Positions 4,922-60,114 of a stretch of 64,000 nt of DNA are shown here, one piece after another; the first letter of the stretch is position 1; the number at the start of each line of letters is the position of its first letter. Below the pieces are notes generated by a model. The model was not told the DNA's origin. It was given only the letters and a program-made list of their open reading frames with translations, and made no database searches. This DNA is from Burkholderiales bacterium (GTDB taxonomy: Bacteria; Pseudomonadota; Gammaproteobacteria; Burkholderiales; CAIKXV01). The stretch is taken from positions 7,659 to 71,658 of the forward strand of contig JBBRCD010000005.1 of assembly GCA_038205245.1 (NCBI GenBank). The letters run 5' to 3'. The translations under genes and the position numbers were made by a program.

Positions 4922-6199
4922 ATGAGTGCACTGCTCGGCTGCATCGCCGACGACTTCACTGGCGCCACCGACCTGGCCAGCACGCTGGTGGCGCAGGGCA
5001 TGCGCACTGTCGTACTGCCCGGGGTGCCGGAGGCGACGCTGGTGCCGCCCGACGCCGATGCGCTGGTGATTGCGCTGAAGTCGCGTGCGATTCCGGCCGG
5101 CGAGGCCGTGGCGCAGTCACTGGCCTCGCTGGAGTGGCTGCGTAGCGCGGGCTGCCGCCAGTTCTACTTCAAGTACTGCTCGACCTTCGATTCCACCGAC
5201 GCCGGCAACATCGGGCCGGTGACCGAGGCGCTGCTAGCGCGTCTCGATGCTTCCTTCACCATTGCCTGTCCCGCGTTCCCGGCCAACGGGCGAACCGTCT
5301 ATCGCGGCTATCTGTTCGTCGGCGATGTGCTGCTGTCCGAATCGAGTCTGCGCAACCATCCACTCAATCCGATGACCGATCCCTCACTGGTGCGGGTGCT
5401 TGGCCGGCAGATGGTGGCGCCGGTCGGCTTGATTGGCTGGGAGACGGTCGCCCGGGGCACCGCCGCAGTGCGTATTGCAATCGGTGAGTTGCAGGCTGCC
5501 GGTGTCCGGGTGGCCATTGCCGATGCGCTGGGTGAGGCTGATGTGATTGCGCTGGGCGCAGCCTGCAGCGATCTCGCCCTGGTCACCGGCGGCTCCGGCA
5601 TGGCGATGGGATTGCCGGCCAATTTCCGCGCGCGGGGGCTGCTGCCGCGCCAGGACAGCGCAGCGCTGCCCTCCGTCGGTGGGCTCAGCGCGGTGATCGC
5701 CGGCAGCTGCTCGACGGCCACACGCGAGCAGGTGGCACGGATGCAGAGCTGGGCAGCCGCGTTCGAGATCGATGCGCTGGCGCTTGCCGACGCCGATCGC
5801 ATGGTCGATGCCGCGCTCGCCTGGGCGCTGCCCAGACTGGCCGAGGGCCCGCTGCTGGTCTACTCCAGTGCCGATCCGCAGCAGGTGCTCGTCGCGCAGC
5901 AGCAGTTCGGGCCGCAGGCAGGCACCCTGATCGAGCAGGTGCTGACGAGAATCGCCCAGGGGCTGGTCGACGCCGGCGTGCGGCGTCTGGTGGTCGCCGG
6001 TGGCGAGACTTCGGGTGCGGTGGTCAGCGGCCTCGGGGTGCGTGCGCTGCGCATCGGTGCCGAGATCTGCCCGGGTGTGCCCTGGACTGCCGGGGTGGGC
6101 CGTACGAGCGCACTCGAAACGCCCCTGCTGCTCGCGTTGAAGTCCGGCAACTTCGGTGGGCCGGAGTTCTTCCGCCAGGCGTTTGCCCAGCTTCACTGA
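4922..6199 (+). CDS. otnK: four-carbon acid-sugar kinase (DUF1537 family, 3-oxo-tetronate kinase-like)
   Basis: 425 aa. N-terminal IADDFTGATD signature of the YgbK/DUF1537 kinase family. Paired with a YgbL-like gene downstream. Confidence 0.8.
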   Translation: MSALLGCIADDFTGATDLASTLVAQGMRTVVLPGVPEATLVPPDADALVIALKSRAIPAGEAVAQSLASLEWLRSAGCRQFYFKYCSTFDSTDAGNIGPVTEALLARLDASFTIACPAFPANGRTVYRGYLFVGDVLLSESSLRNHPLNPMTDPSLVRVLGRQMVAPVGLIGWETVARGTAAVRIAIGELQAAGVRVAIADALGEADVIALGAACSDLALVTGGSGMAMGLPANFRARGLLPRQDSAALPSVGGLSAVIAGSCSTATREQVARMQSWAAAFEIDALALADADRMVDAALAWALPRLAEGPLLVYSSADPQQVLVAQQQFGPQAGTLIEQVLTRIAQGLVDAGVRRLVVAGGETSGAVVSGLGVRALRIGAEICPGVPWTAGVGRTSALETPLLLALKSGNFGGPEFFRQAFAQLH

Positions 6200-6815
6200 A
6201 TGGCAGCCGAGGACAGCACCCACCCTCTGACCCGGGCGCAGTGGCGCGCCTGGCTGGTACGCCATCACCTGCGCACCCAAGGCGTGTGGGTGCTCAGTTA
6301 CAAGAAAGCCACTGGCAAGCCCGTACCCGGGTACGACGCCAATCGTCGAGGAAGCGTTGTGTTTCGGCTGGATCGACAGCAAGCCGAACAAGCTGGACGA
6401 CGCGCGCAGCAAGCTGTGGCTTGCGCCGCGCGAGCCGCGCACCGGCGGGTCGCGCCTGAACAAGGCGCGCGTGCAGCGGATGATCGCTGCCAGTTGCATG
6501 GCACCGGCCGGTCTGGCCAAGGTCGAGGCTACGCAGCGCGATGGTTCGTGGGCAGCGCTCGATGCTGTGAAAGCGGCCGAACTGCCCGACGATCTGCTTG
6601 CCGCATTCGAGCGCCGGCCCGGATCGCGCGCGAACTTCGAGGCGTTCCCACGCTCGGCCAAGCGCGGCATCCTCGAGTGGATCGCCAATGCGAAGCGTGC
6701 GCCTACGCGGGCGCGGCGCCTCGAGGACACGGCAACGCTGGCCACACGCAAGGAACGCGCAAACCAGTGGCCGGCGCCGGCAGGGCGCGCATCGCGTGAC
6801 GCAGAACCGAGCTGA
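6200..6815 (+). pseudogene. YdeI/OmpD-associated family gene interrupted by a 1-nt frameshift
   Basis: The N-terminal part (LTRAQWRAWL...VWVLSYKKATGKPVPGYDA) is in the frame starting at 6200. The rest (IVEEALCFGWIDSKPNKLDD...SAKRGILEWI) continues in the frame of ORF 6357-6815. The junction is about 6341-6343 (gcc aat cgt versus gcc atc gtc). Confidence 0.7.
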
Positions 6816-6821
6816 AGGAGC

Positions 6822-7460
6822 ATGATGGAAACCGAAGATCGACTGCGGGAAGAGCTGGTGCTGCTTGGCAAGTCGCTCTACGACCGTGGCCTCGCGCATG
6901 GCTCCGCCGGCAACCTGAGCGTTAAGCTCGCCGATGGCTGGCTGATGTCGCCGACCAACTCCAGTCTGGGCCGGCTCGACCCGGCGCGTCTGTCGCGGCT
7001 GGATGCGCAGGGCCGGCTGCTGGGTGGCGATGCGCCGTCGAAGGAGACTTTCCTGCATCTGGCGATGTACGGCGAGCGCGCCAACTGCCGCGCCGTCGTG
7101 CATCTGCACTCGGTGCATGCGGTGGCTGTGTCCTGCCTGGACGGCTTGAATCCAAAGGATGTGTTCCCGCCGATCACCGCTTATGCGGTGATGCAGGTCG
7201 GCCGGCTCGCGCTGGTACCGTACTTTCCGCCCGGCGATGCGGCCCTGGCGGACGCGGTGCGCAATCTGGCGGCCAAGCATCAGGCACTGCTGCTCGCCAA
7301 TCACGGGCCGGTGGTGGCCGGCAGTTCGCTCTCGGCCGCAGTCAATGCGATCGAGGAACTGGAGCAGACTGCCCGCTTGATGCTTCTGCTCGAAGGCCGC
7401 CCGACCCGGTTGCTGAGTCAGGAGCAGGTGCGCGACCTCGAGCAGCGCTTTCCGGGCTGA
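6822..7460 (+). CDS. otnC: class II aldolase/adducin-family 3-oxo-tetronate 4-phosphate decarboxylase-like
   Basis: 212 aa. GSAGNLS, AVVHLHS and LLANHGPVV motifs. Collinear with E. coli YgbL as I recall it. Confidence 0.85.
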   Translation: MMETEDRLREELVLLGKSLYDRGLAHGSAGNLSVKLADGWLMSPTNSSLGRLDPARLSRLDAQGRLLGGDAPSKETFLHLAMYGERANCRAVVHLHSVHAVAVSCLDGLNPKDVFPPITAYAVMQVGRLALVPYFPPGDAALADAVRNLAAKHQALLLANHGPVVAGSSLSAAVNAIEELEQTARLMLLLEGRPTRLLSQEQVRDLEQRFPG

Positions 7461-7581
7461 CACTGCAGCCGAGGCTTCCCCACGGACGCGTGCAGCGGCA
7501 CAATACGGCTCAACAACAACGCATCGCGGTTCGGAAGGTGGTTCTAAAGTTGGTTCGGACCCGCGCTGGAGGAGCTTCATC

Positions 7582-8613
7582 TTGTCTGATTCACATCGTC
7601 TGTCCGCAGCGGGCGCCGGAATTTGCCTGCGTGAACGCCGCAGCACTCGCGCGGTGGCGTCCGCGCTGATCGTCGCTGGCGCCGCCGTCGCGCTCACCGA
7701 CATCGCGATCGCCCAGGCCTGGCCAGCCAAGCCGGTGCGCCTGGTGCTGCCGTTTCCGCCCGGCGGCGGTACCGACATTCTCGGCCGCACCATGGCCAAC
7801 CGTCTGGGTGAATCCATCGGGCAGTCGATCGTGCTCGACAACCGTCCCGGCGCCGGGGGCAACCTCGGTGCCGAGATCGTCGCGCGCGCAGCAGCAGATG
7901 GTTACACAATGGTGTTGGTGGCGCCCGGATTCGTCATCAGCCCCAGCCTGTACCGAAAGCTTGGCTACGACCCGTTCAGGGATTTCGAACCGGTATCGCT
8001 GGTCGCTGTCATCCCGAATCTGCTCGCGGTCCATCCGTCGCTGCCGGTGCAGAACGTGAAAGAGCTGATCGCCTTTGCCAAGGCCAACCCGGGCAAGATC
8101 AACTTCGGCTCCGGCGGTGTCGGCACCTCCAATCATCTGGCTACCGAGCTGCTCGCGGTGCGTACCGGTGTGTCGATGGTACATGTGCCATACAAGGGCG
8201 CGGCCACCGCAATGATGGATACGGTGGCCGGCAATGTGCAACTGATCACCATCGGCACTGGTGCGGCGTTGACGCAGGTGAAGGCAGGCAAACTGCGTGC
8301 GCTGGCGACCCTCACGCCTGGCAGGGTGCCGAACGCGCCGGAGATTCCCACTATCGCCGAGGCGGGTTTCCCGGGCCTGGAAGTGCACACCTGGTATGCG
8401 GTGTTCCTGCCGGCCAGGAGTCCGGCGGCGATCGTGCGCCGGTTGAACGATGAACTGTCGCGGGTGATGTTCGAGGCCGATGTGAGGGAACGGCTGTCGA
8501 CGATCGGGGCCGAACCGCAGAAGAGCACATCGGAAGAACTGGCGAAGTTCATTCGCAACGAGCACCGGCGCTGGGCCGAGGTGATCAAGGTGGCGAAGCT
8601 GGAGGCGGAATGA
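7582..8613 (+). CDS. Bug/TctC-family periplasmic solute-binding protein
   Basis: 343 aa. GGAGGA lies 7 nt before a TTG start. Mature part begins AQAWPAKPVRLVLPFPPGGGTD and HVPYKGAATA is present. Exact start uncertain. Confidence 0.85.
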   Translation: MSDSHRLSAAGAGICLRERRSTRAVASALIVAGAAVALTDIAIAQAWPAKPVRLVLPFPPGGGTDILGRTMANRLGESIGQSIVLDNRPGAGGNLGAEIVARAAADGYTMVLVAPGFVISPSLYRKLGYDPFRDFEPVSLVAVIPNLLAVHPSLPVQNVKELIAFAKANPGKINFGSGGVGTSNHLATELLAVRTGVSMVHVPYKGAATAMMDTVAGNVQLITIGTGAALTQVKAGKLRALATLTPGRVPNAPEIPTIAEAGFPGLEVHTWYAVFLPARSPAAIVRRLNDELSRVMFEADVRERLSTIGAEPQKSTSEELAKFIRNEHRRWAEVIKVAKLEAE

Positions 8614-9578
8614 AGGTCAAGGGCGCTGTTGCACTGGTAGCGGTATTGCTGTCGATCGGGGCTGCGCAGGCGCAGACCCAGTCATTCCCCACCCGCCCGA
8701 TACGCATCCTGGTCGGCTTCGCCCCGGGCGGGCCGACCGATGTGGTGGCGCGTCTGGTCGCGCCGAAGATGGCCGAGCAGTGGGGACAACCGGTGCTGGT
8801 CGACAACCGGCCGGGGGCGGGTGCGAACATCGCGATGGCAATGGCGGCGAAGTCCGCGCCTGATGGTCATACGATCCTGTTCACCAGTTCCAGCGTGGTA
8901 GTCAACCCCAGTCTGTATCGCAACCCCGGCTTCAACCTGTTCAAGGACCTGGCGCCGGTGACACGCGCCACCACTTCGCCGATCGCCTTCATCGTGCCGG
9001 CGGCATCGCCGGCGAAATCGCTAAAGGAGTTCATCGCCCTGGCGCGCGCCAACCCGGGCAAATTCACCTTCGGCTCGCCCGGCGCCGGCACCACCGGACA
9101 TCTTTCGTGCGAGATGGTCAAGCAACTGGCCGGTCTCGATCTCGAGCATGTGCCCTTTGGCGGAGCGGCACCGCTGATGACCGCGATGATCTCCAATCAG
9201 GTGCAGCTCGGTTGCCCCGGGCTGCCACCGGCGATACCGCATATGCGCAGCGGCGCGGTGCGCGCGCTGGCGGTCACCTCGCTCAATCGGTGGCCGACGA
9301 CCCCTGAGGTGCCGACGGTCGCCGAGTCGGGCTTCGCAGGCTTCAACACCGACTTCATGACCGGCGTGTTTGTGCCGATGGGCACCCCGGCGCCGGTCAT
9401 CGAACGTATCCGCAGCGAGATCGGCCGCATCCTGGCGCTGCCCGACGTGCGCGAACGGCTTTCCTTTCTTGGGTTCGAGCCGGTAATGAATACCTCGGCG
9501 GAGTTCGCCCGCGAACTGCGTATCGAGGTCGATCAGTATGCGAAGGTGATTCGCGATGGAAAGCTCAATGTCGAATAG
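8610..9578 (+). CDS. Bug/TctC-family periplasmic solute-binding protein
   Basis: 322 aa. Signal peptide ends AQAQ, then PIRILVGFAPGGPTD. 4-nt overlap with the previous gene. Confidence 0.9.
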   Translation: MKVKGAVALVAVLLSIGAAQAQTQSFPTRPIRILVGFAPGGPTDVVARLVAPKMAEQWGQPVLVDNRPGAGANIAMAMAAKSAPDGHTILFTSSSVVVNPSLYRNPGFNLFKDLAPVTRATTSPIAFIVPAASPAKSLKEFIALARANPGKFTFGSPGAGTTGHLSCEMVKQLAGLDLEHVPFGGAAPLMTAMISNQVQLGCPGLPPAIPHMRSGAVRALAVTSLNRWPTTPEVPTVAESGFAGFNTDFMTGVFVPMGTPAPVIERIRSEIGRILALPDVRERLSFLGFEPVMNTSAEFARELRIEVDQYAKVIRDGKLNVE

Positions 9579-35745: not shown

Positions 35746-35782
35746 TTGCACGGCAGATGAATACCGTATAAATATACGGCAT
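35746..35782 (+). promoter_or_regulatory. putative imuA promoter (TTGCAC -35, TAAATA/TATAAA -10) overlapped by palindrome ATACCGTA-TAAATA-TACGGCAT
   Basis: Palindrome at 35761-35782. Its last two bases are the A and T of the imuA ATG. A near-identical copy lies at lexA. Confidence 0.6.
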
Positions 35783-36761
35783 GCCCTCCGTTGCCTTCGC
35801 TCCCCTCCGCGGCTCCACCTCCGGTTCCGTCTCCGGTCTCGGCGCTGTCCCTGTTCCGGACTCGCCGCTGCCGCAGGCGCTGCGGGCATTCGCCGCCCGC
35901 ACGGCGGGGGTCGGTCCGGTGGCCCTGTCCTCGATCCCGTCGGTGTTCCGCGCCGGCGAACTGCCCGCGAACATCGCGCCCGGCATCCCGACCGGGTTTC
36001 CCGATCTGGACGCCGAGATTCCCGGTGGCGGCTGGCCGGTGGCGGCGCTGACCGAAATCCTGTCGGACGCCTGCGGTATCGGTGAGGTGTCGCTGCTGCT
36101 GCCGGCGCTGCGCCATCTGACCCGCTCGGCCGACTGGCGCGGACGCGGGCTGCTGCTGATCGATCCGCCGCACATGCCTTATGCACCGGCACTGGCGGCG
36201 GCCGGCATCGACCTGGAGGCGCTGGCGATACTGCGGCCCCGGAGCGAAGACGATGCGCTGTGGGCGGCCGAGCAGGCGCTGCGCAGCGGGGCGGCCGGTG
36301 CGGTGCTGCTGTGGGCACGCCCTGCGCGCGGCAGCGACAGCGCGCAGCGCTACCAGCGGTTGCGCCGGCTGCAGCTCGCCGCCGCCGCTGGCGGTGGTCT
36401 GGGCATCGTTTTCTCAGCCAGCTGTGCGGCGACCCTGTCGACACCGGCGGCCTTGCGGCTGGCACTGAGCGTCACTGCGGAAGGGGCGCTGGCGGTGAGT
36501 CTGTGCAAGCGGCGCGGGCTGGCGCGGCCGAAGACGGTGACCCTCAGGGCGCGCCGGCTGCCGCAGCCGTATCTGGCCGGGCAGGCACTGCGGCCGCGCG
36601 CGCTGGCGGCAGGTCAGATGGCGGGCGGTGCGGTGCCAGTCGATCCGTCCGGCGCCGGTCTGCCTGGCCGGATCGCACATTCGGTGGCGGCGGTGGGGGC
36701 TGCGCTTCGCGCGGCTTCGGTCCGTCTGACGCGCGAGCGTGAGTTCACCCCGTCGCGATGA
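35781..36761 (+). CDS. imuA: translesion-synthesis-associated protein ImuA (RecA/SulA-like)
   Basis: The block IPTGFPDLDAEIPGGGWPVAALTEIL is typical of ImuA. First gene of the imuA-imuB-dnaE2 cassette. The N-terminus is about 30 aa longer than usual, so an internal GTG near 35919 is possible. Confidence 0.8.
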   Translation: MPSVAFAPLRGSTSGSVSGLGAVPVPDSPLPQALRAFAARTAGVGPVALSSIPSVFRAGELPANIAPGIPTGFPDLDAEIPGGGWPVAALTEILSDACGIGEVSLLLPALRHLTRSADWRGRGLLLIDPPHMPYAPALAAAGIDLEALAILRPRSEDDALWAAEQALRSGAAGAVLLWARPARGSDSAQRYQRLRRLQLAAAAGGGLGIVFSASCAATLSTPAALRLALSVTAEGALAVSLCKRRGLARPKTVTLRARRLPQPYLAGQALRPRALAAGQMAGGAVPVDPSGAGLPGRIAHSVAAVGAALRAASVRLTREREFTPSR

Positions 36762-36788: not shown

Positions 36789-38330
36789 GTGTCATCGACC
36801 CTGTTGTGGATTGCACTCTATCTACCCGAACTGCCTCTGGAGGCGGTCAATCGTGCCCAGTCGGGCAGTGGGGGGCTGGGTGGGATTTCGAGTGACCGTG
36901 CCAGCGGCGCGCTGATCCTCGACCTGCCGCTGGCGGTGAGCGACGGCCCGGGCAACAGGCCGTTCGTGCTGGCCGTCAATGCACCGGCACATGCCGCCGG
37001 CGTTTGTGTCGGCATGAGCGTCGCGGCGGCCAATGCGCTTGTCACCGGACTGGTCGTGCTGCCGCGCGCTGCCGAGCGCGAGCAGCAGGCGATCGCGCAG
37101 GTCGCGGCCTGGGCTGCACAGTTCACCCCATCGGTGGTGCTCGAGCGCGCCGGGGTGCTGCTCGAAGTCTCGGCCAGTCTCAAACTGTTCGGTGGTCTCG
37201 CGCGGCTGCTCGGACAGTTGCGCACCGGTCTCACCGAACTGGGCTTTCGCGCTGCCTTCGGTGTGGCGCCGACACCGCGTGCGGCCTGGCTGCTCGCGCG
37301 TGCCGGGCACCGGCAGACCGGCGTACGTGCCTGCCTCGAGCCGGGCGATCTGGCCGCGCGTCTCGCCGGGTTGCCGCTCGAACTGCTCGACTGGCCGCGC
37401 GAGACCCTCGATGCGCTGGCGGTGCTGGGTATCAGCCGTATAGGCGAGGCGACTGCGCTGCCACGCGAGGGCTTCCGGCGCCGCTTCGGTGCGCCAGCAT
37501 CGATCGATCTGGATCGTGCCCTGGGCCGTGCCGCCGATCCGCGGGTGTGCTTCGCGTTGCCCGAGCGCTTCGATGCGCGTATCGATCTGCTGAGCGAGGT
37601 CAACGACACCGCGCTGCTCGATGTGCCGCTCACGCGCATGCTCGCGGCAATGGAAGGTTTTCTGCGCGCGCGCGGGGCCGGTGCGCTGCAGGTCGAAGTC
37701 GAGCTCGAGCATGGCCGTTCGATGCCACCGACGCTGCTTGCGGTCGGCGCGCATGCGCCCGAGCGTGCCCGTGTCCGCTGGCGCCGGCTGCTGCGCGAGC
37801 GGCTTGACCGGCTCGAACTCAAGGCTACGGTGAGCGCGGTGTCGATCAAGGTGGCGACATTGCATGGCTTCGGCGAACAGAGCACCAGCTTCCTGCCCGA
37901 TGCGACGCGGCGTGCGCAGTCCTGGCGCGAACTCACCGAGCGGCTCGCCTCCCGGCTCGAGCCCGGCGCGATGTTCACCGTGGCGCTGCGCGATGACCAT
38001 CGCCCGGAGCAGGCCTGGTATCGCGCCGATGCCCGGCTGCCGCCACCCGCGGCGCGCCAGCTGCATGAATCGCCAGCCGGCGCACTCGGTGCACGGCCGG
38101 TGTTCCTGCTCGAGCGGCCGCGCGCGCTCATCTGTGCCGAAGCCCGCCCGCAGTATCAGGGTGCACTGGAGATGATCAGCGGGCCGGAGCGGATCGAAGC
38201 CGGCTGGTGGGATGGCCGGGCCGCGGCGCGTGACTACTTCGTCGCGCGCAACCGTTGTGGCGAGGTGTGCTGGATCTATCGTGAGCCGGTCGATCCGTCG
38301 CGCTGGTATCTGCATGGCGTGTTCGGCTAG
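36789..38330 (+). CDS. imuB: Y-family polymerase-like protein ImuB
   Basis: 513 aa. N-terminal LWIALYLPELPLEAV is typical of ImuB. Sits between imuA and dnaE2. Confidence 0.85.
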   Translation: MSSTLLWIALYLPELPLEAVNRAQSGSGGLGGISSDRASGALILDLPLAVSDGPGNRPFVLAVNAPAHAAGVCVGMSVAAANALVTGLVVLPRAAEREQQAIAQVAAWAAQFTPSVVLERAGVLLEVSASLKLFGGLARLLGQLRTGLTELGFRAAFGVAPTPRAAWLLARAGHRQTGVRACLEPGDLAARLAGLPLELLDWPRETLDALAVLGISRIGEATALPREGFRRRFGAPASIDLDRALGRAADPRVCFALPERFDARIDLLSEVNDTALLDVPLTRMLAAMEGFLRARGAGALQVEVELEHGRSMPPTLLAVGAHAPERARVRWRRLLRERLDRLELKATVSAVSIKVATLHGFGEQSTSFLPDATRRAQSWRELTERLASRLEPGAMFTVALRDDHRPEQAWYRADARLPPPAARQLHESPAGALGARPVFLLERPRALICAEARPQYQGALEMISGPERIEAGWWDGRAAARDYFVARNRCGEVCWIYREPVDPSRWYLHGVFG

Positions 38331-38371: not shown

Positions 38372-41300
38372 ATGTTGCCGGGCTATGCCGAACTCGACGC
38401 ACTGTCGAACTTCAGTTTCCTGCGCGCGGCCTCGCATCCGGAGGAACTGGTCGCGCAGGCCTCGGCCCTGGGCTATCGCGCGCTGGCGATCGTCGACGAG
38501 TGTTCGGTGTCCGGTGTGGTGCGCGCCCATCTGGCGGCGAAGGACTGCGCGCTGGCGCTGATCGTCGGTGCGCAGTTCAGGCTGGCCGACTGCACGGCGA
38601 TAGAACGGGTGATCCTGCTTGCCTGCACACGCGAGGGCTATGGCAATCTGTGCGAGCTGATCAGCCTGGCACGCGGTCGCGCGCCCAAGGGCAACTACCG
38701 GCTGCAGCTCGCCGATCTGCTGCGGGGGCTTGATCAGTGTCTGGCGATCGTGCTGCTGGCTGCCCCGGAGACGGTGGCGGCCGAGACCGAGACCGAGACC
38801 GCCGACTCACCCGCGGGACCTGCCGTGCACGATGCGCTCGGGCTGCTCGCCCGCGCTTTCCCCGGCGACTGCTGGCTCGGCGTCGCGCTGGTGCAAAGTG
38901 CGGACGATGGCGCGCGGCTTGCGCACGCGCTGCAACTGGCGGCCGAACTGCAGCTGCCGTTGACTGCCTGCGGTGCAGTGCAGATGCACCGGCGAGAACG
39001 CAAGCCGCTGCATGATGTGCTGACCGCCATCCGCGCGCTGACACCGCTCACCGAGCTCGGCCGCCGGGTGCTGCCCAATGCCGAACGCTGCCTGCGCCCG
39101 ATCGGCCGGCTGATGCAGCTCTATCCGCCCGAGCTGCTGGCGCAGACGATGGCGATCGCCGAACGCTGCACCTTCTCGCTCGATGAGTTGCGCTACGAGT
39201 ATCCGCGCGAGCTGGTGCCGCAGGGGCGCAGCGCGAGCGCCTGGCTGCGCGAGCTGACCTTCGACGGACTCGCGCTGCGCTATCCGCACGGCGCATCCGA
39301 TGCGGTGCTGAAGTTGATCGAGCATGAGCTCGCGCTCATTGCCGAGCTGAAGTACGAGGCCTACTTCCTCACCGTGCATGACATCGTGCGTTTCGCGCGC
39401 GGCCGCGGCATCCTGTGCCAGGGGCGCGGCTCGGCGGCGAACTCGGCGGTCTGCTATGCACTGGGTATCACCGAGGTCGACCCGGGACGCATGCAGGTGC
39501 TGTTCGAGCGCTTCATCTCCAAGGAGCGCAACGAGCCGCCCGATATCGATGTCGACTTCGAGCATCAGCGGCGCGAAGAGGTGATGCAGTACCTGTACGC
39601 GAAGTACGGGCGCGATCGCGCCGCGCTGACTGCAGCGCTGTCCACTTACCGGCCACGCTCGGCGCTGCGTGATGTGGGCAAGGCGTTCGGCTTGTCGCTC
39701 GACCAGATCGACCGATTGACGAAGACGCTCGCCTGGTGGGATGGACGCGAGGTGGCGCGCGAGCGGCTGGTCGAGGCTGGCTTCGACCCGGACAATCCGC
39801 TGCTCGTGCAGGTGGTCGAGTTCGCGCATCTGCTGGTCGGCTTTCCCCGCCATCTGTCGCAGCACAGCGGCGGCTTCGTCATTGCGCGCGACCGGCTGAC
39901 CCGGCTGGTGCCGGTTGAGAACGCGGCGATGGACGGGCGCACGGTGATCCAGTGGGACAAGGACGATCTGGATGCGCTCGGCCTGCTCAAGATCGATGTG
40001 CTGGCGCTGGGCATGCTCACTGCGGTGAGAAAGACGCTCGATGCCCTGAATGCATTCGGGGTACCGTCACCGGAGGGCGGGGCGAGGCACGTTTCGGGTA
40101 CAGACCCCGTATCGGATCCCGCATCACATCCTGCATCACATCCTGCATCACATCCTGTAACGTCCGCAGCCTGGCGTCTGCAGGACATCCCGGCCGAGGA
40201 TGCCGCCACCTACGCGATGATCCAGCGCGCCGACACCATCGGCGTGTTTCAGATCGAGTCGCGTGCACAGATGTCGATGCTGCCGCGGCTGAAGCCGGCC
40301 TGCTTCTACGATCTGGTGATCGAGGTGGCGATCGTGCGCCCCGGGCCGATCCAGGGCGGCATGGTGCATCCGTACCTGCGCCGGCGGCAGGGCCGGGAGC
40401 CGGTCACCTATCCATCGGCGGCGGTGAAGGGCGTGCTCGAGCGCACGCTGGGCATCTCGATCTTCCAGGAGCAGGTGATGCAACTGGTGGTGGTGGCCGC
40501 CGGCTTCACCGCCGGTGAGGCCGACCGGGTGCGCCGGGCGATGGCCGCCTGGCGGCGCAAGGGGGGGCTTGAGCCGTTTCGCGACAAGCTGCTCGCCGGA
40601 ATGCTGGCGCGCGGCTACAGCGCGAGCTATGCCGAGCAGATATTCCAGCAGATTCTCGGCTTCGGCGAGTATGGTTTTCCCGAGTCGCATGCGGCGAGCT
40701 TTGCGCTGCTGGTGTATGTGTCGTGCTGGCTGAAGTGCCATCACCCGGCAGCCTTCGCCTGCGGGCTGCTCAACTCGCAGCCGCTGGGCTTCTATGCGCC
40801 CTCGCAGATCGTGCAGGATGTGAAACGGCATGGCGTGCAGGTGCATGCGCCCGATGTGCTGGTGAGCGGATGGGATTGCGTGCTGGAGGCGGCGGTCGAT
40901 GCGCAGGCGAGATCAGGTGCACTGTCGGCTGCGGCGCCGGAAGTAACACCGGTAGCACTGGTAACACCGGTAGCACCGGAACCGACATCGGCGCCGGGCA
41001 CGCTGCCTGGGGTGGCACCTCACCTGGTGCCGGGTCCGGCATTGAGACTCGGCCTGCGCATGATCAAGGGATTGAGCGAGGCCGGGGCTGCGCGGCTGGT
41101 GGCCGCGCGCGCGCAGTCACCGTTCAGCGATGTCGCCGATCTCGCGCGCCGCGCACAGTTGCAGCGCACCGACATCAACGCGCTGGCCGCGGCCGATGCA
41201 CTCGTCTCGCTCGCCGGGCATCGGCGCGAGGCGTGGTGGCAGGCGCTGGGTTTCGATGGCGATACGGCATTGACACGGTCGCCGCGCGATGCCGTGCAGC

Positions 41301-41737
41301 CGTCGCTGTTCGAACCGCGCGAAGGCGAGCAGGTGGTGCTCGACTACGCCACGCTCGGGCTCACGCTGCGCAGTCATCCGCTCGCGCTGTTGCGCCCGTT
41401 GCTGACTGCGCGCCGCATGTCCACTGCCGAGGCGCTGCGCAGTTCGCGCAACGGGCAGACGATGCGCGTGTGCGGCATCGTCACCTGCCGCCAGCGTCCG
41501 TCCACCGCCAGCGGGGTGGTGTTCGTCACCCTGGAGGACGAGACCGGCTACATCAATGTCGTGGTCTGGCCGGCGCTGGTCGAGCGTCAACGCCGCGAAC
41601 TGCTCGCCTCACGGCTGATGACCGTCTACGGCCAGGTGCAGCGCGAAGGTGAAGTCATCCATCTGGTGGCGGGCCGGCTGGTCGATGACAGTCGGCTGCT
41701 CGGGCGGCTCACTACCCAGTCGCGCGACTTCAGCTAA
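38372..41737 (+). CDS. dnaE2: error-prone DNA polymerase DnaE2 (ImuC)
   Basis: 1121 aa. PHP N-terminus YAELDALSNFSFLRAASHPEEL and Pol III alpha core blocks (GRGSAANSAVCYALGIT, DIDVDFEH, HSGGFVI). Confidence 0.95.
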   Translation: MLPGYAELDALSNFSFLRAASHPEELVAQASALGYRALAIVDECSVSGVVRAHLAAKDCALALIVGAQFRLADCTAIERVILLACTREGYGNLCELISLARGRAPKGNYRLQLADLLRGLDQCLAIVLLAAPETVAAETETETADSPAGPAVHDALGLLARAFPGDCWLGVALVQSADDGARLAHALQLAAELQLPLTACGAVQMHRRERKPLHDVLTAIRALTPLTELGRRVLPNAERCLRPIGRLMQLYPPELLAQTMAIAERCTFSLDELRYEYPRELVPQGRSASAWLRELTFDGLALRYPHGASDAVLKLIEHELALIAELKYEAYFLTVHDIVRFARGRGILCQGRGSAANSAVCYALGITEVDPGRMQVLFERFISKERNEPPDIDVDFEHQRREEVMQYLYAKYGRDRAALTAALSTYRPRSALRDVGKAFGLSLDQIDRLTKTLAWWDGREVARERLVEAGFDPDNPLLVQVVEFAHLLVGFPRHLSQHSGGFVIARDRLTRLVPVENAAMDGRTVIQWDKDDLDALGLLKIDVLALGMLTAVRKTLDALNAFGVPSPEGGARHVSGTDPVSDPASHPASHPASHPVTSAAWRLQDIPAEDAATYAMIQRADTIGVFQIESRAQMSMLPRLKPACFYDLVIEVAIVRPGPIQGGMVHPYLRRRQGREPVTYPSAAVKGVLERTLGISIFQEQVMQLVVVAAGFTAGEADRVRRAMAAWRRKGGLEPFRDKLLAGMLARGYSASYAEQIFQQILGFGEYGFPESHAASFALLVYVSCWLKCHHPAAFACGLLNSQPLGFYAPSQIVQDVKRHGVQVHAPDVLVSGWDCVLEAAVDAQARSGALSAAAPEVTPVALVTPVAPEPTSAPGTLPGVAPHLVPGPALRLGLRMIKGLSEAGAARLVAARAQSPFSDVADLARRAQLQRTDINALAAADALVSLAGHRREAWWQALGFDGDTALTRSPRDAVQPSLFEPREGEQVVLDYATLGLTLRSHPLALLRPLLTARRMSTAEALRSSRNGQTMRVCGIVTCRQRPSTASGVVFVTLEDETGYINVVVWPALVERQRRELLASRLMTVYGQVQREGEVIHLVAGRLVDDSRLLGRLTTQSRDFS
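40109..40156. repeat. 12-nt in-frame tandem repeat (GCATCACATCCT x3 plus a degenerate unit)
   Basis: Encodes VSDP ASHP ASHP ASHP within dnaE2. Further in-frame repeats: GAGACC x3 at 38783-38800, and about 40940-40980. Confidence 0.9.
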
Positions 41738-57674: not shown

Positions 57675-57712
57675 TTGCATTCCTCCCCGAATACCGTATA
57701 AATTTACGGTAT
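57675..57712 (+). promoter_or_regulatory. putative lexA promoter (TTGCAT -35, TATAAA/TAAATT -10) overlapped by perfect palindrome ATACCGTA-TAAATT-TACGGTAT
   Basis: Palindrome at 57691-57712 with perfect 8-bp arms. Its last two bases are the A and T of the lexA ATG. No Shine-Dalgarno. Confidence 0.65.
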
Positions 57713-58310
57713 GGACGGTCTGACCTCACGACAACAGGAAATCCTCGACTTCCTCCGCACCTTCTCGGAGGAGAACGGCATGCCCCCCACCCGGGCGGAG
57801 GTGGCGCGCGCCTTTGGCTTCCGGTCGCCCGCATCGGCCGAGGAGCATTTGCGGGCGCTCGAGAAGAAGGGCGCCATCACCCTGTCCGGCATGGCACGCG
57901 GGCTGCGTCTGACCGAGCCCGCCGGCCTGCCGCTGATCGGGCAGGTTGCCGCCGGGGCGCCACTGCTCGCTCAGGAGAACGTGCTCGGCCATTATCCGGT
58001 CAGCCCGAATTTGTTCAAGCTGCGTGCCGACTATCTGCTCAAGGTGCGCGGCTGGAGCATGCGCGACGCCGGCATTCTGGATGGCGACTGGCTCGTGGTG
58101 CACCGAACGACCGAGGCGCGCGACGGCCAGATCGTGGTCGCCCGGGTGGACGATGAAGTCACCGTCAAGCGCCTCAAGCGCAAGGCCGGTCGTGCCTATC
58201 TGATCGCCGAGAACCCGGAGTTCTCGCCGATCGTGATCGAACTCGCCAAGACGCCGCTCGCGATCGAAGGTATCGCGCTCGGTGTAGTGCGTGACCTCAA
58301 TGCTGTCTGA
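57711..58310 (+). CDS. lexA: SOS repressor LexA
   Basis: 199 aa. [12 protein letters not shown]...[10 protein letters not shown] wHTH, Ala-Gly cleavage site in VAAGAP, catalytic Ser in RGWSM and Lys in VKRL. Confidence 0.95.
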
Positions 58311-58469: not shown

Positions 58470-59516
<1,047 letters not shown>

Positions 59517-59658: not shown

Positions 59659-60114
59659 ATGCCGCGTCCTTCCCTATCGATGCGTGGGCGCGGTCTTGGC
59701 TACCTCGCCCGCCGGGAGCACTCGCGGCAGGAGCTTGGTGCCAAGCTGCGCCGCCACGCAGCACAGGGCGAGGATGTGGACGCGCTTCTGGACGACTTTG
59801 AGCAGCGGGGATGGCTGTCCGAGCGGCGCCTGGTGCAGCAGGTGATCACTGGAACGAAACGCTTCGGCGCGGCCCGCCTGCTGCACGACCTGCGCCGGCG
59901 CGGCGTGAACGAGAGCTTGATCCGGGAGGCCGCCGACCCGCTCAGGCGAAGCGAGCTCGCCTCCGCGCGTGCGGTCTGGCAGAAGCGGTTCGGCACGTTG
60001 CCGGTGGATGCGCAGTCCCGGCTCAAGCAGATCCGGTTCCTGCGCGGTCGCGGCTTTTCGTCGGGCACGATCGAACGTATCCTTCGCACCACGGTGGACG
60101 AAACGCCGGAATAG
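59659..60114 (+). CDS. recX: recombination regulator RecX
   Basis: 151 aa. YLARREHSRQELGAKL and the three-repeat helical pattern typical of RecX. Immediately follows recA. Confidence 0.9.
   Translation: MPRPSLSMRGRGLGYLARREHSRQELGAKLRRHAAQGEDVDALLDDFEQRGWLSERRLVQQVITGTKRFGAARLLHDLRRRGVNESLIREAADPLRRSELASARAVWQKRFGTLPVDAQSRLKQIRFLRGRGFSSGTIERILRTTVDETPE

Follow-up and report, generated by a model that had tools for sequence, protein, structure and literature searches.

Here we present an analysis of a 64-kb stretch of DNA from a Burkholderiales bacterium (contig JBBRCD010000005.1; hereafter the window), in which a 22-bp palindrome, ATACCGTATAAAT[A/T]TACGG[C/T]AT, occurs in two copies that lie flush with the ATG start codons of imuA and lexA. 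This palindrome is very likely the LexA (SOS) operator of the source organism, as the first-pass annotation of the window had proposed. The best explanation overall, to which we assign a probability of about 0.82, is a CCGT-type LexA operator that spans the promoter and yields leaderless or near-leaderless transcripts. The operator reading is strongly supported by four independent lines of sequence evidence: the placement of the palindrome at SOS operons, its conservation in orthologues, its association with SOS genes in public collections, and the co-variation of its half-sites with the recognition helix of LexA. It would thus be an ordinary SOS operator in function, written in a distinct and previously engineered code that now appears in nature together with co-evolved repressor residues. 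The two sites and their promoter elements are as follows.

35761–35782: imuA operator ATACCGTATAAATATACGGCAT, core CCGT-N8-ACGG at 35764–35779; predicted LexA dimer site.
35767–35775, + strand: A/T-rich spacer of the imuA operator, TATAAATAT, containing the -10-like TATAAA, TAAATA and AAATAT.
35746–35751, + strand: imuA -35-like hexamer TTGCAC; in seven imuA promoters, TTGCNN stands a constant 12 nt from CCGT, the intervening sequence being variable.
57691–57712: lexA operator ATACCGTATAAATTTACGGTAT, core at 57694–57709; spacer aside, the extended palindrome is perfect.
57675–57680, + strand: lexA -35-like hexamer TTGCAT, kept in nine lexA promoters; 30 nt from the hexamer to the A of the ATG.

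The imuA site is part of a 25-mer, GAATACCGTATAAATATACGGCATG (35759–35783, with the ATG at 35781–35783), which recurs with two substitutions at lexA as GAATACCGTATAAATTTACGGTATG (57689–57713). The first-pass annotation had reported the palindrome at 35761–35782, TTGCAC ending 9 nt upstream of it, its run into the ATG and the 25-nt recurrence at lexA, all of which are exact in the sequence. It had also seen the motif nowhere else in the window, and this was borne out: with up to three mismatches allowed, the 18-mer ACCGTATAAATWTACGGY recovered only the imuA and lexA sites in 64 kb (0.01 expected; count reached in 0 of 100 dinucleotide-preserving shuffles), and the exact core CCGT-N8-ACGG is likewise confined to these two sites. 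Both are 16-bp dyads with an 8-bp A/T-rich spacer at a promoter, the form of the SOS box of Beta- and Gammaproteobacteria, for which the E. coli-type consensus is taCTGTatatatatACAGta, or CTGT-N8-ACAG (PMC8565304, PMC13393415). However, the two window sites and every orthologous site have the core CCGT-N8-ACGG instead of the canonical CTGT-N8-ACAG. The window contains no exact match to CTGT-N8-ACAG, and 315 kb of DNA from the clade, window included, contain none even when one core mismatch is allowed and an A/T-rich spacer required; with the same relaxed settings (up to one core mismatch, A/T-rich spacer), the search of these 315 kb recovered only the known CCGT sites and one weak match inside the window. 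An Rfam scan of the window found nothing, leaving the palindrome unexplained by known RNA elements.

The genes that follow the two boxes form two clusters on the + strand.

35781–36761, + strand: imuA open reading frame (326 amino acids; NF033429, E = 1.6e-55, residues 55–246).
36789–38330, + strand: imuB-like Y-family polymerase homologue (PF00817 IMS, E = 7e-11; under the DinB cut-offs).
38372–41737, + strand: dnaE2, error-prone DNA polymerase (NF004225, 1443 bits).
57711–58310, + strand: lexA (199 amino acids; TIGR00498, E = 8e-66, residues 1–196).
58470–59516, + strand: recA (TIGR02012, E = 3e-169).
59659–60114, + strand: recX (PF21981 and PF21982).

The first cluster comprises three co-directional genes encoding a RecA/SulA-like ImuA, a Y-family ImuB and DnaE2, and imuA-imuB-dnaE2 is a documented SOS element (PMC8565304). 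It resembles known LexA-regulated cassettes in gene order and in the position of the box at the first gene, but differs from them in the type of box, in a low-complexity N-terminal extension of ImuA of 50 amino acids and in a start codon at the operator, the ATG at 35781 being made up of the palindrome's final base pair followed by TG. For lexA, we take the ATG at 57711 as the start because the TIGR00498 profile matches from residue 1. The recA gene has no box of its own, and a terminator scan found none on the + strand between lexA and recA; recA is probably co-transcribed from the lexA promoter, and the order lexA-recA-recX is also found at three related loci (L001, L002 and L004). The other window genes annotated, through profiles or through synteny with L001, are metabolic or housekeeping genes, so that every SOS-type gene identified in the window sits behind one of the two boxes.

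Both sites are conserved in relatives. Comparison of LexA homologues places the closest neighbourhood of the window among uncultured Betaproteobacteria (Burkholderiales/Rhodocyclaceae), and DNA of the locus occurs in microbial-mat, sediment and freshwater metagenomes; one contig, L175, is from the same organism as the window. The lexA operator is identical or near-identical in L001, L002, L004–L006, L037, L072, L111, L129, L175 and L219, and the imuA operator is conserved in the orthologues L029, L039, L043, L046, L132, L202 and L225. In the same lexA promoters other than that of L175 (LexA 68–91% identical), the common layout is cTTGCAt-N13-CCGTATA(A/G)ATTTACGG-t-ATG; the -35 element and the box are constant, whereas the spacer and the DNA upstream have diverged freely. 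In seven genomes, the imuA promoter has the form TTGCNN-N12-CCGTATAAA(A/T)ATACGG-(c/t)-ATG. Like the window, contig CANGYF010000024.1 bears both a lexA and an imuA site (L072 and L039). A separate copy of the right half-site, CACGGCA, lies over the imuA -35 element at 35749–35755, where it can pair with the left arm and was flagged as terminator-like on the - strand; as a candidate third LexA site it was rejected, being absent from all orthologues, and it is probably there by chance.

We next turn to the repressor. The window LexA matches the PDB LexA chains 7b5g and 3jso with E about 1e-70 and is 56% identical to E. coli LexA; the family profile matches over its full length, and the Ala81-Gly82 cleavage site, Ser116 and Lys153 are invariant relative to E. 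coli LexA. Its alignment with the E. coli PDB chains, including the DNA complex 3JSO, is gap-free through residue 57, and E. coli residue numbering therefore transfers directly. In E. coli LexA, the residues of helix III that contact DNA are Ser39, Asn41, Ala42, Glu44 and Glu45 (PMC3091678). Within this recognition helix, E. coli and neighbouring betaproteobacterial LexAs read RSP-N41-A42-AEEHL, whereas the window clade reads RSP-A41-S42-AEEHL; codons 40–42 of the window gene (57828–57836, + strand) are CCC GCA TCG, or Pro-Ala-Ser. Sorted by residues 40–42, the LexAs and the operators at their own genes are distributed as follows.

P-N-A: L008, L009, L142 (Nitrogeniibacter), L143 and L144; lexA operator CTGT-type, with 0–1 mismatch.
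P-N-S: L247; lexA operator CTGT.
P-A-S: window, L001, L002, L004, L037, L072, L111 and L129 (eight species-level loci); lexA operator CCGT.
A-S-S: L083 and L249 (Casimicrobiaceae); lexA operator CCGT.
P-A-T: L091; lexA operator CCGT.
L-T-T: L136; lexA operator CCGT.
I-S-S: L246; lexA operator CCGT.

The correspondence between operator type and residues 40–42 holds in 19 lexA promoters with 0 exceptions: every LexA behind a CCGT box lacks Asn41 and carries Ser or Thr at position 42. As read from these promoters, the CCGT code tracks the loss of Asn41 together with Ser/Thr42, and A42S alone does not bring it about. The latter point concerns L247 (positions 2483–2498; protein P0073), in which an Asn41-Ser42 LexA is encoded behind a canonical CTGTATAAAAAGACAG box lying 2 nt from the ATG. 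This suggests that A42S alone leaves specificity unswitched, and the L247 LexA may be a natural intermediate. Among 120 clusters of LexA from the family Casimicrobiaceae, 92 are P-S-S, 23 A-S-S, one is the canonical P-N-A and one is unreadable; the remaining three are other variants without Asn41, each with Ser or Thr42.

The same exchange has been made in the laboratory. LexA408, made decades ago, is an E. coli LexA mutant of altered specificity that is used in a bacterial two-hybrid system (SU202) and in the optogenetic repressors LEVI, LexRO and iLight. It binds CCGT operators and not wild-type operators (PMC7102963); the op408 half-site is CCGT, and strain SU202 carries CCGT(N)8ACAG (PMC12430536). 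Its DNA-binding domain, ...GFRSASSAEEHL..., contains RSASSAEEHL, which corresponds to Pro40Ala, Asn41Ser and Ala42Ser (PMC8222386, supplementary file 1). The natural system thus shares with LexA408/op408 a CCGT half-site, here in both arms, and substitutions at equal positions of helix III. The A-S-S LexAs of Casimicrobiaceae (L083, L249; 23 of the 120 clusters) carry the exact LexA408 triplet; the window LexA matches it at position 42, has lost Asn41 but has Ala rather than Ser in its place, and keeps Pro40. Because the A-S-S proteins equal the LexA408 triplet, and because the window LexA shares Ser42 and has lost Asn41, LexA itself would be the protein that reads the box, which we regard as the strongest single argument. 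LexA408, however, is a laboratory mutant, whereas the pair described here occurs in nature, would control a genuine SOS regulon and has apparently evolved on more than one occasion.

To the same end point the distribution of the motif across public collections. When 596 Gb of genomes, one for each species, were scanned with the pattern TACCGTATAWWWWTACGG, at least 119 loci were found; the counts are a sample, not a census. About 90 of the matches listed are chance matches in Firmicutes or Bacteroidetes DNA of low guanine–cytosine (GC) content. Among the matches listed with GC above 0.55, 25 of 29 lie directly upstream of lexA (7), imuA (5) or dnaE2 (13), and these sites come from many metagenome-assembled genomes (MAGs) of Betaproteobacteria and Casimicrobiaceae. 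A scan of JGI metagenomes with a separate pattern, ATACCGT-W8-ACGGTAT, placed 10 of 13 high-GC matches at lexA, imuA or dnaE2; both scans combined, 35 of the 42 high-GC exact matches listed are found just upstream of one of these three genes. In the viral collection, 13 low-GC matches were found, approximately the chance rate. The patterns used for the collections require near-perfect sites, and weak regulon members escape them. The first-pass annotation had considered that the motif might be common at unrelated genes; this is not so, the high-GC matches clustering at lexA, imuA and dnaE2.

These observations suggest the following mechanism, in which LexA binding, repression and the start of transcription at the two sites are inferred from sequence. 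A LexA dimer would bind TACCGT-N8-ACGGTA, which is laid out like the E. coli box taCTGT-N8-ACAGta, C:G replacing T:A at position 2 of each half-site, and the cognate LexA would do so with Ala41-Ser42 in recognition helix III in place of the Asn41-Ala42 of CTGT-binding LexAs. The operator would span the -10 element and transcription start of a promoter of the sigma70 type with TTGCA at -35; within the imuA operator spacer, we assign the putative -10 from geometry. LexA bound to the box, which lies over -10 and +1, should keep RNA polymerase off the promoter and so block both imuA-imuB-dnaE2 and lexA-recA-recX. Upon DNA damage, RecA-stimulated self-cleavage of LexA (Ala81-Gly82, with Ser116 and Lys153) would release both operons; such RecA-dependent induction is expected because the cleavage site and the catalytic residues are intact. 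Transcripts would begin with the A of the ATG or no more than about 3 nt from it, and would thus be leaderless or nearly so.

The leaderless reading derives from the spacing of these elements. The distance from the -35 TTGnnn to the A of the ATG is 29 or 30 nt in 16 CCGT-type betaproteobacterial lexA and imuA promoters, with outliers of 31 nt in the CTGT-type L144 and 32 nt in the Verrucomicrobia locus L136. Because 29–30 nt suits a sigma70 promoter with a 17–18-bp spacer, the A of the ATG is the expected +1. At both genes, the 20 nt before the ATG consist of operator sequence without anything like GGAG, whereas recA, inside the lexA operon, is preceded by a GGAG Shine–Dalgarno sequence; the missing ribosome-binding site noted at imuA in the first-pass annotation is thus found at both genes, each of which has an AUG start without a Shine–Dalgarno sequence, as leaderless mRNAs do. 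The lexA ATG is flush with the box even in L091, where LexA is 37% identical. It lies 2–3 nt from the box in L144 and L247, sister lineages of the CTGT type, so the ATG-at-box layout of lexA appears older than the change of code. The dnaE2 genes of L054, L130 and L240 also begin directly at a box. Taken together, a leaderless or nearly leaderless lexA transcript is probable. The lambda cI mRNA transcribed from PRM is a leaderless repressor mRNA, and it shares with the arrangement at lexA a -10 element some 7–12 nt before the AUG, the lack of a Shine–Dalgarno sequence and an autoregulated S24-family repressor as its product; here, by contrast, the start site is a predicted one. We know of no description of a leaderless lexA or imuA in Betaproteobacteria.

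For imuA, the position of the start codon has to be weighed together with the operator. Residues 1 to about 53 of the window ImuA (within 35781–35940) form a Pro/Ala/Ser-rich extension found in this lineage only, after which the conserved core begins with VPSVFR(C/A)GELP. If the operator is real but translation begins internally, at the GTG at 35919 or at a GTG near the VPSVFR motif, then 35781–35918 would be a 5' untranslated region and imuA would not be leaderless. The NF033429 profile, which starts only at residue 55, is compatible with this, as are the ImuA-like genes of CTGT-type relatives, which encode about 245 amino acids, and the extension itself, which is of low complexity and varies from 25 to 77 codons among close relatives. 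Moreover, in L043 (2319–2380) an ACT replaces the ATG adjoining the box, and translation has to begin 39 nt further on, in a different frame. L043 is the sole exception, however: seven of the eight genomes (window, L029, L039, L046, L132, L202 and L225) keep an ATG at the box that is in frame with the conserved core despite several independent insertions and deletions, for which we estimate a chance of approximately (1/3)^4 or less in non-coding DNA. The GC content of the extension by codon position (0.75/0.69/0.82) is also like that of the imuA core and unlike that of the upstream non-coding DNA, although this measure discriminates poorly because Pro and Ala codons dominate. An internal start is on balance rather unlikely, and translation of imuA from 35781 has good odds.

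Other explanations of the palindrome itself fare less well. It could act in RNA, with transcription starting upstream and a 7-bp stem, UACCGUA...UACGGUA, hiding the start codon for translational control. A hairpin is indeed predicted, stable at lexA (-13.3 kcal/mol in a 40-nt context) and moderately so at imuA (-6.1), and the AUG overlaps its 3' arm; but the arms are invariant and hence offer no compensatory changes in support of pairing, the A/T-rich 'loop' is conserved and resembles a LexA spacer and -10 element, and TTGCA at -35 is conserved at a fixed distance when the DNA further upstream is not. In Casimicrobiaceae, moreover, the box follows directly on a consensus promoter, TTGAC[CT]-N17-TATAAT, far from the start codon, and the motif co-varies with a DNA-binding helix. 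We therefore consider control in RNA very unlikely. Hardly more attractive, and if anything slightly less so, is a regulator other than LexA, such as a phage-type XRE/helix-turn-helix (HTH) repressor or an unknown factor, with LexA binding elsewhere. Similar boxes do adjoin XRE-type HTH genes in unrelated DNA (L126, with weak matches, and the viral contig L018). Against this, all of the genomes examined have the box at their own lexA gene, the hallmark of autoregulation; neither lexA, recA and imuA nor any other part of the 315 kb offers a CTGT-N8-ACAG box instead; the half-site change follows the changes in the LexA recognition helix in at least two independent lineages; and an engineered LexA with such residues, LexA408, binds a CCGT operator. 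Least probable of all is that the shared 25-mer is a duplicated strong promoter core, that is, a -10 region arisen by chance or by copying without a repressor role. The two window copies are near-identical over 25 nt and include TATAAA-like sequence, yet the GC-rich palindromic arms, which a -10 element does not need, are the most conserved part, and in dozens of MAGs the motif stands before the same three gene families in varied promoter contexts: over the -10, downstream of it, and 10–240 nt from start codons.

Several observations weigh against a CCGT-type LexA operator with leaderless transcripts, or against parts of that reading. A scan with a strict sigma70 consensus called neither the imuA nor the lexA promoter; the -35 element fits TTGACA at three of six positions, and the best -10 candidates either lack the canonical final T or stand at non-optimal spacing. 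A search for sequencing runs containing the locus returned DNA metagenomes only and no RNA run. The box of Casimicrobiaceae, downstream of its TTGAC[CT]-N17-TATAAT promoter, leaves a leader of 50–60 nt; the leaderless layout would thus be a feature of the clade and not of the operator type. With respect to the repressor, the one contact that we could document for Asn41 of E. coli LexA is water-mediated, to A15, a base that is unchanged here (PMC5999292). Since this is not the position that changed, the contact does not account for the T-to-C switch at the atomic level. Finally, none of the matches listed lay at the other classical SOS genes uvrA, recN, ssb and dinB, in scans that detected near-perfect sites only.

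Compared with the E. coli-type box, the CCGT operator keeps the 16-bp core palindrome with its 4-bp arms and 8-bp A/T-rich spacer, the flanking TA..TA and T14/A15, so that both boxes fit TA-CNGT-AT...AT-ACNG-TA. It also keeps the overlap with the -10/+1 region at lexA and at error-prone polymerase genes, and LexA retains its domain layout and cleavage residues. What differs is base 2 of the half-site, which is C and not T in all of the more than 40 sites, the lack of a CTGT box, and residues 41-42 of the window LexA, Ala-Ser instead of Asn-Ala. Other LexA motifs are further removed, for example GTTC-N7-GTTC in Alphaproteobacteria, TTAC-N3-GTAA in Bdellovibrio and GGTT-N10-AACC in Geobacter (PMC8565304). 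In those lineages, too, the motif has changed while lexA and the translesion polymerases were kept as core targets, but the changes are in arm sequence, spacing or symmetry, whereas CCGT differs by one base pair per half-site. As far as these sequences go, the step between CCGT and CTGT is thus far the shortest that separates two LexA codes, and sister lineages show both states. The catalogue of LexA motifs in PMC8565304 does not list CCGT-N8-ACGG, and full-text literature searches, which were incomplete and may have missed an earlier description, returned no account of a natural CCGT-type LexA operator.

LexA is the standard case of motif drift between phyla, and the known motifs are too different from one another to show intermediate steps. 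Here a single base pair in each half-site and two adjacent helix residues separate the codes, and both occur in close betaproteobacteria with the same promoter architecture. LexA408/op408 had already shown the biochemical outcome, without reference to nature, and a joint change of repressor and all operators thereby becomes testable with existing reporter strains. The finding also has practical consequences: regulon prediction and MAG annotation based on CTGT-N8-ACAG miss the SOS response of bacteria, Casimicrobiaceae among them, that are abundant in wastewater, sediment and microbial mats, and the natural CCGT-type LexAs give synthetic biology a ready supply of orthogonal LexA/operator pairs. 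It would be a further unusual feature, if confirmed, for a proteobacterium to make leaderless lexA and imuA mRNAs.

The number of origins was examined with a neighbour-joining bootstrap of the LexA C-terminal domain only (127 columns), a crude test that is independent of the DNA-binding helix. Casimicrobiaceae LexA was monophyletic in 145 of 150 replicates and grouped with the P-A-S clade of the window in 0 of 150, and the P-A-S clade grouped with P-N-A/P-N-S sister sequences in 78 of 150. This tentatively suggests at least two independent switches of code within Betaproteobacteria, in addition to the Verrucomicrobia-type LexAs. A change from CTGT to CCGT, with loss of Asn41 and gain of Ser/Thr42, that took place independently in the window clade, in Casimicrobiaceae and in some Verrucomicrobia-type LexAs would be a recurrent, minimal and apparently easy re-coding of a regulon; we put this forward as a conjecture with somewhat less than even odds. 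If it is true, the sister lineages P-N-A/CTGT, P-N-S/CTGT and P-A-S/CCGT, with their common lexA promoter layout, provide the intermediates for reconstructing the path. We further speculate that re-coding shields the SOS response of the host from mobile elements listening in on CTGT boxes, and that certain elements then follow, for example the transposase of L204 described below.

The distant LexAs come from two Verrucomicrobia MAGs and one metagenome contig and are 34–37% identical to that of the window; a TACCGT-N8-ACGGTA box lies 1–12 nt before each lexA start (L091:7053–7072, L136:1167–1186 and L246:529–550). The Verrucomicrobia LexA motif is reportedly TGTTC-N4-GAACA, unlike this box. A P-N-A-type Burkholderiales MAG (L007:2790–2890) carries a truncated, stop-terminated duplicate of the lexA 5' end, MKELTPRQAEILQLIRDTIETRG..., just upstream of the intact gene. 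In Casimicrobiaceae, lexA heads an operon with a 68-amino-acid open reading frame, a 247-amino-acid protein and imuB (L249:5934–5949 and 6001–9186; L083:3490–3507). The 247-amino-acid protein has no Pfam hit and occupies the place of the ImuA-like gene in relatives. The dnaE2 gene is separate in this family, with a CCGT box of its own, and divergent from an M14 carboxypeptidase gene (L103, L113, L125, L141 and L221). Casimicrobium huifangae SJ-1 is available in culture and can be transformed (PMC13515534).

Some boxes lie at other genes. In L204 (1811–1832; the same as L151:2968–2989), a perfect ATACCGTATAAATATACGGTAT box is flush with the ATG of an IS91-family Y2 transposase (PF04986, PF14319). 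LexA control of IS91-like ISCR transposases via CTGT boxes was shown experimentally in 2026 (PMC13393415), and by analogy the L204 box looks like the ISCR-type LexA arrangement adapted to a CCGT-type host. Two identical boxes, ATACCGTTTATATAAACGGTAT, stand 86 bp apart before a gene for 114 amino acids without a Pfam match (L191:12437–12544; GC 0.59), and a box in an uncultured betaproteobacterium (L118:3140–3161) has no recognisable SOS gene adjacent. In the alphaproteobacterium Sinirhodobacter populi (L126:7697–7718), the box precedes a short open reading frame with weak XRE-type HTH matches below the Pfam cut-offs. On the viral contig (L018:9470–9545; GC 0.48), TTGACA is followed by TACCGTATATAAATACGGT, flush with the ATG of a gene whose product, MKQLRKIRED..., resembles an HTH repressor by eye only. 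A second, similar box, ATACCGAAATAAATTACGGAAT, lies approximately 45 nt upstream, and the two may be paired phage operators with this type of sequence in a host that is unrelated.

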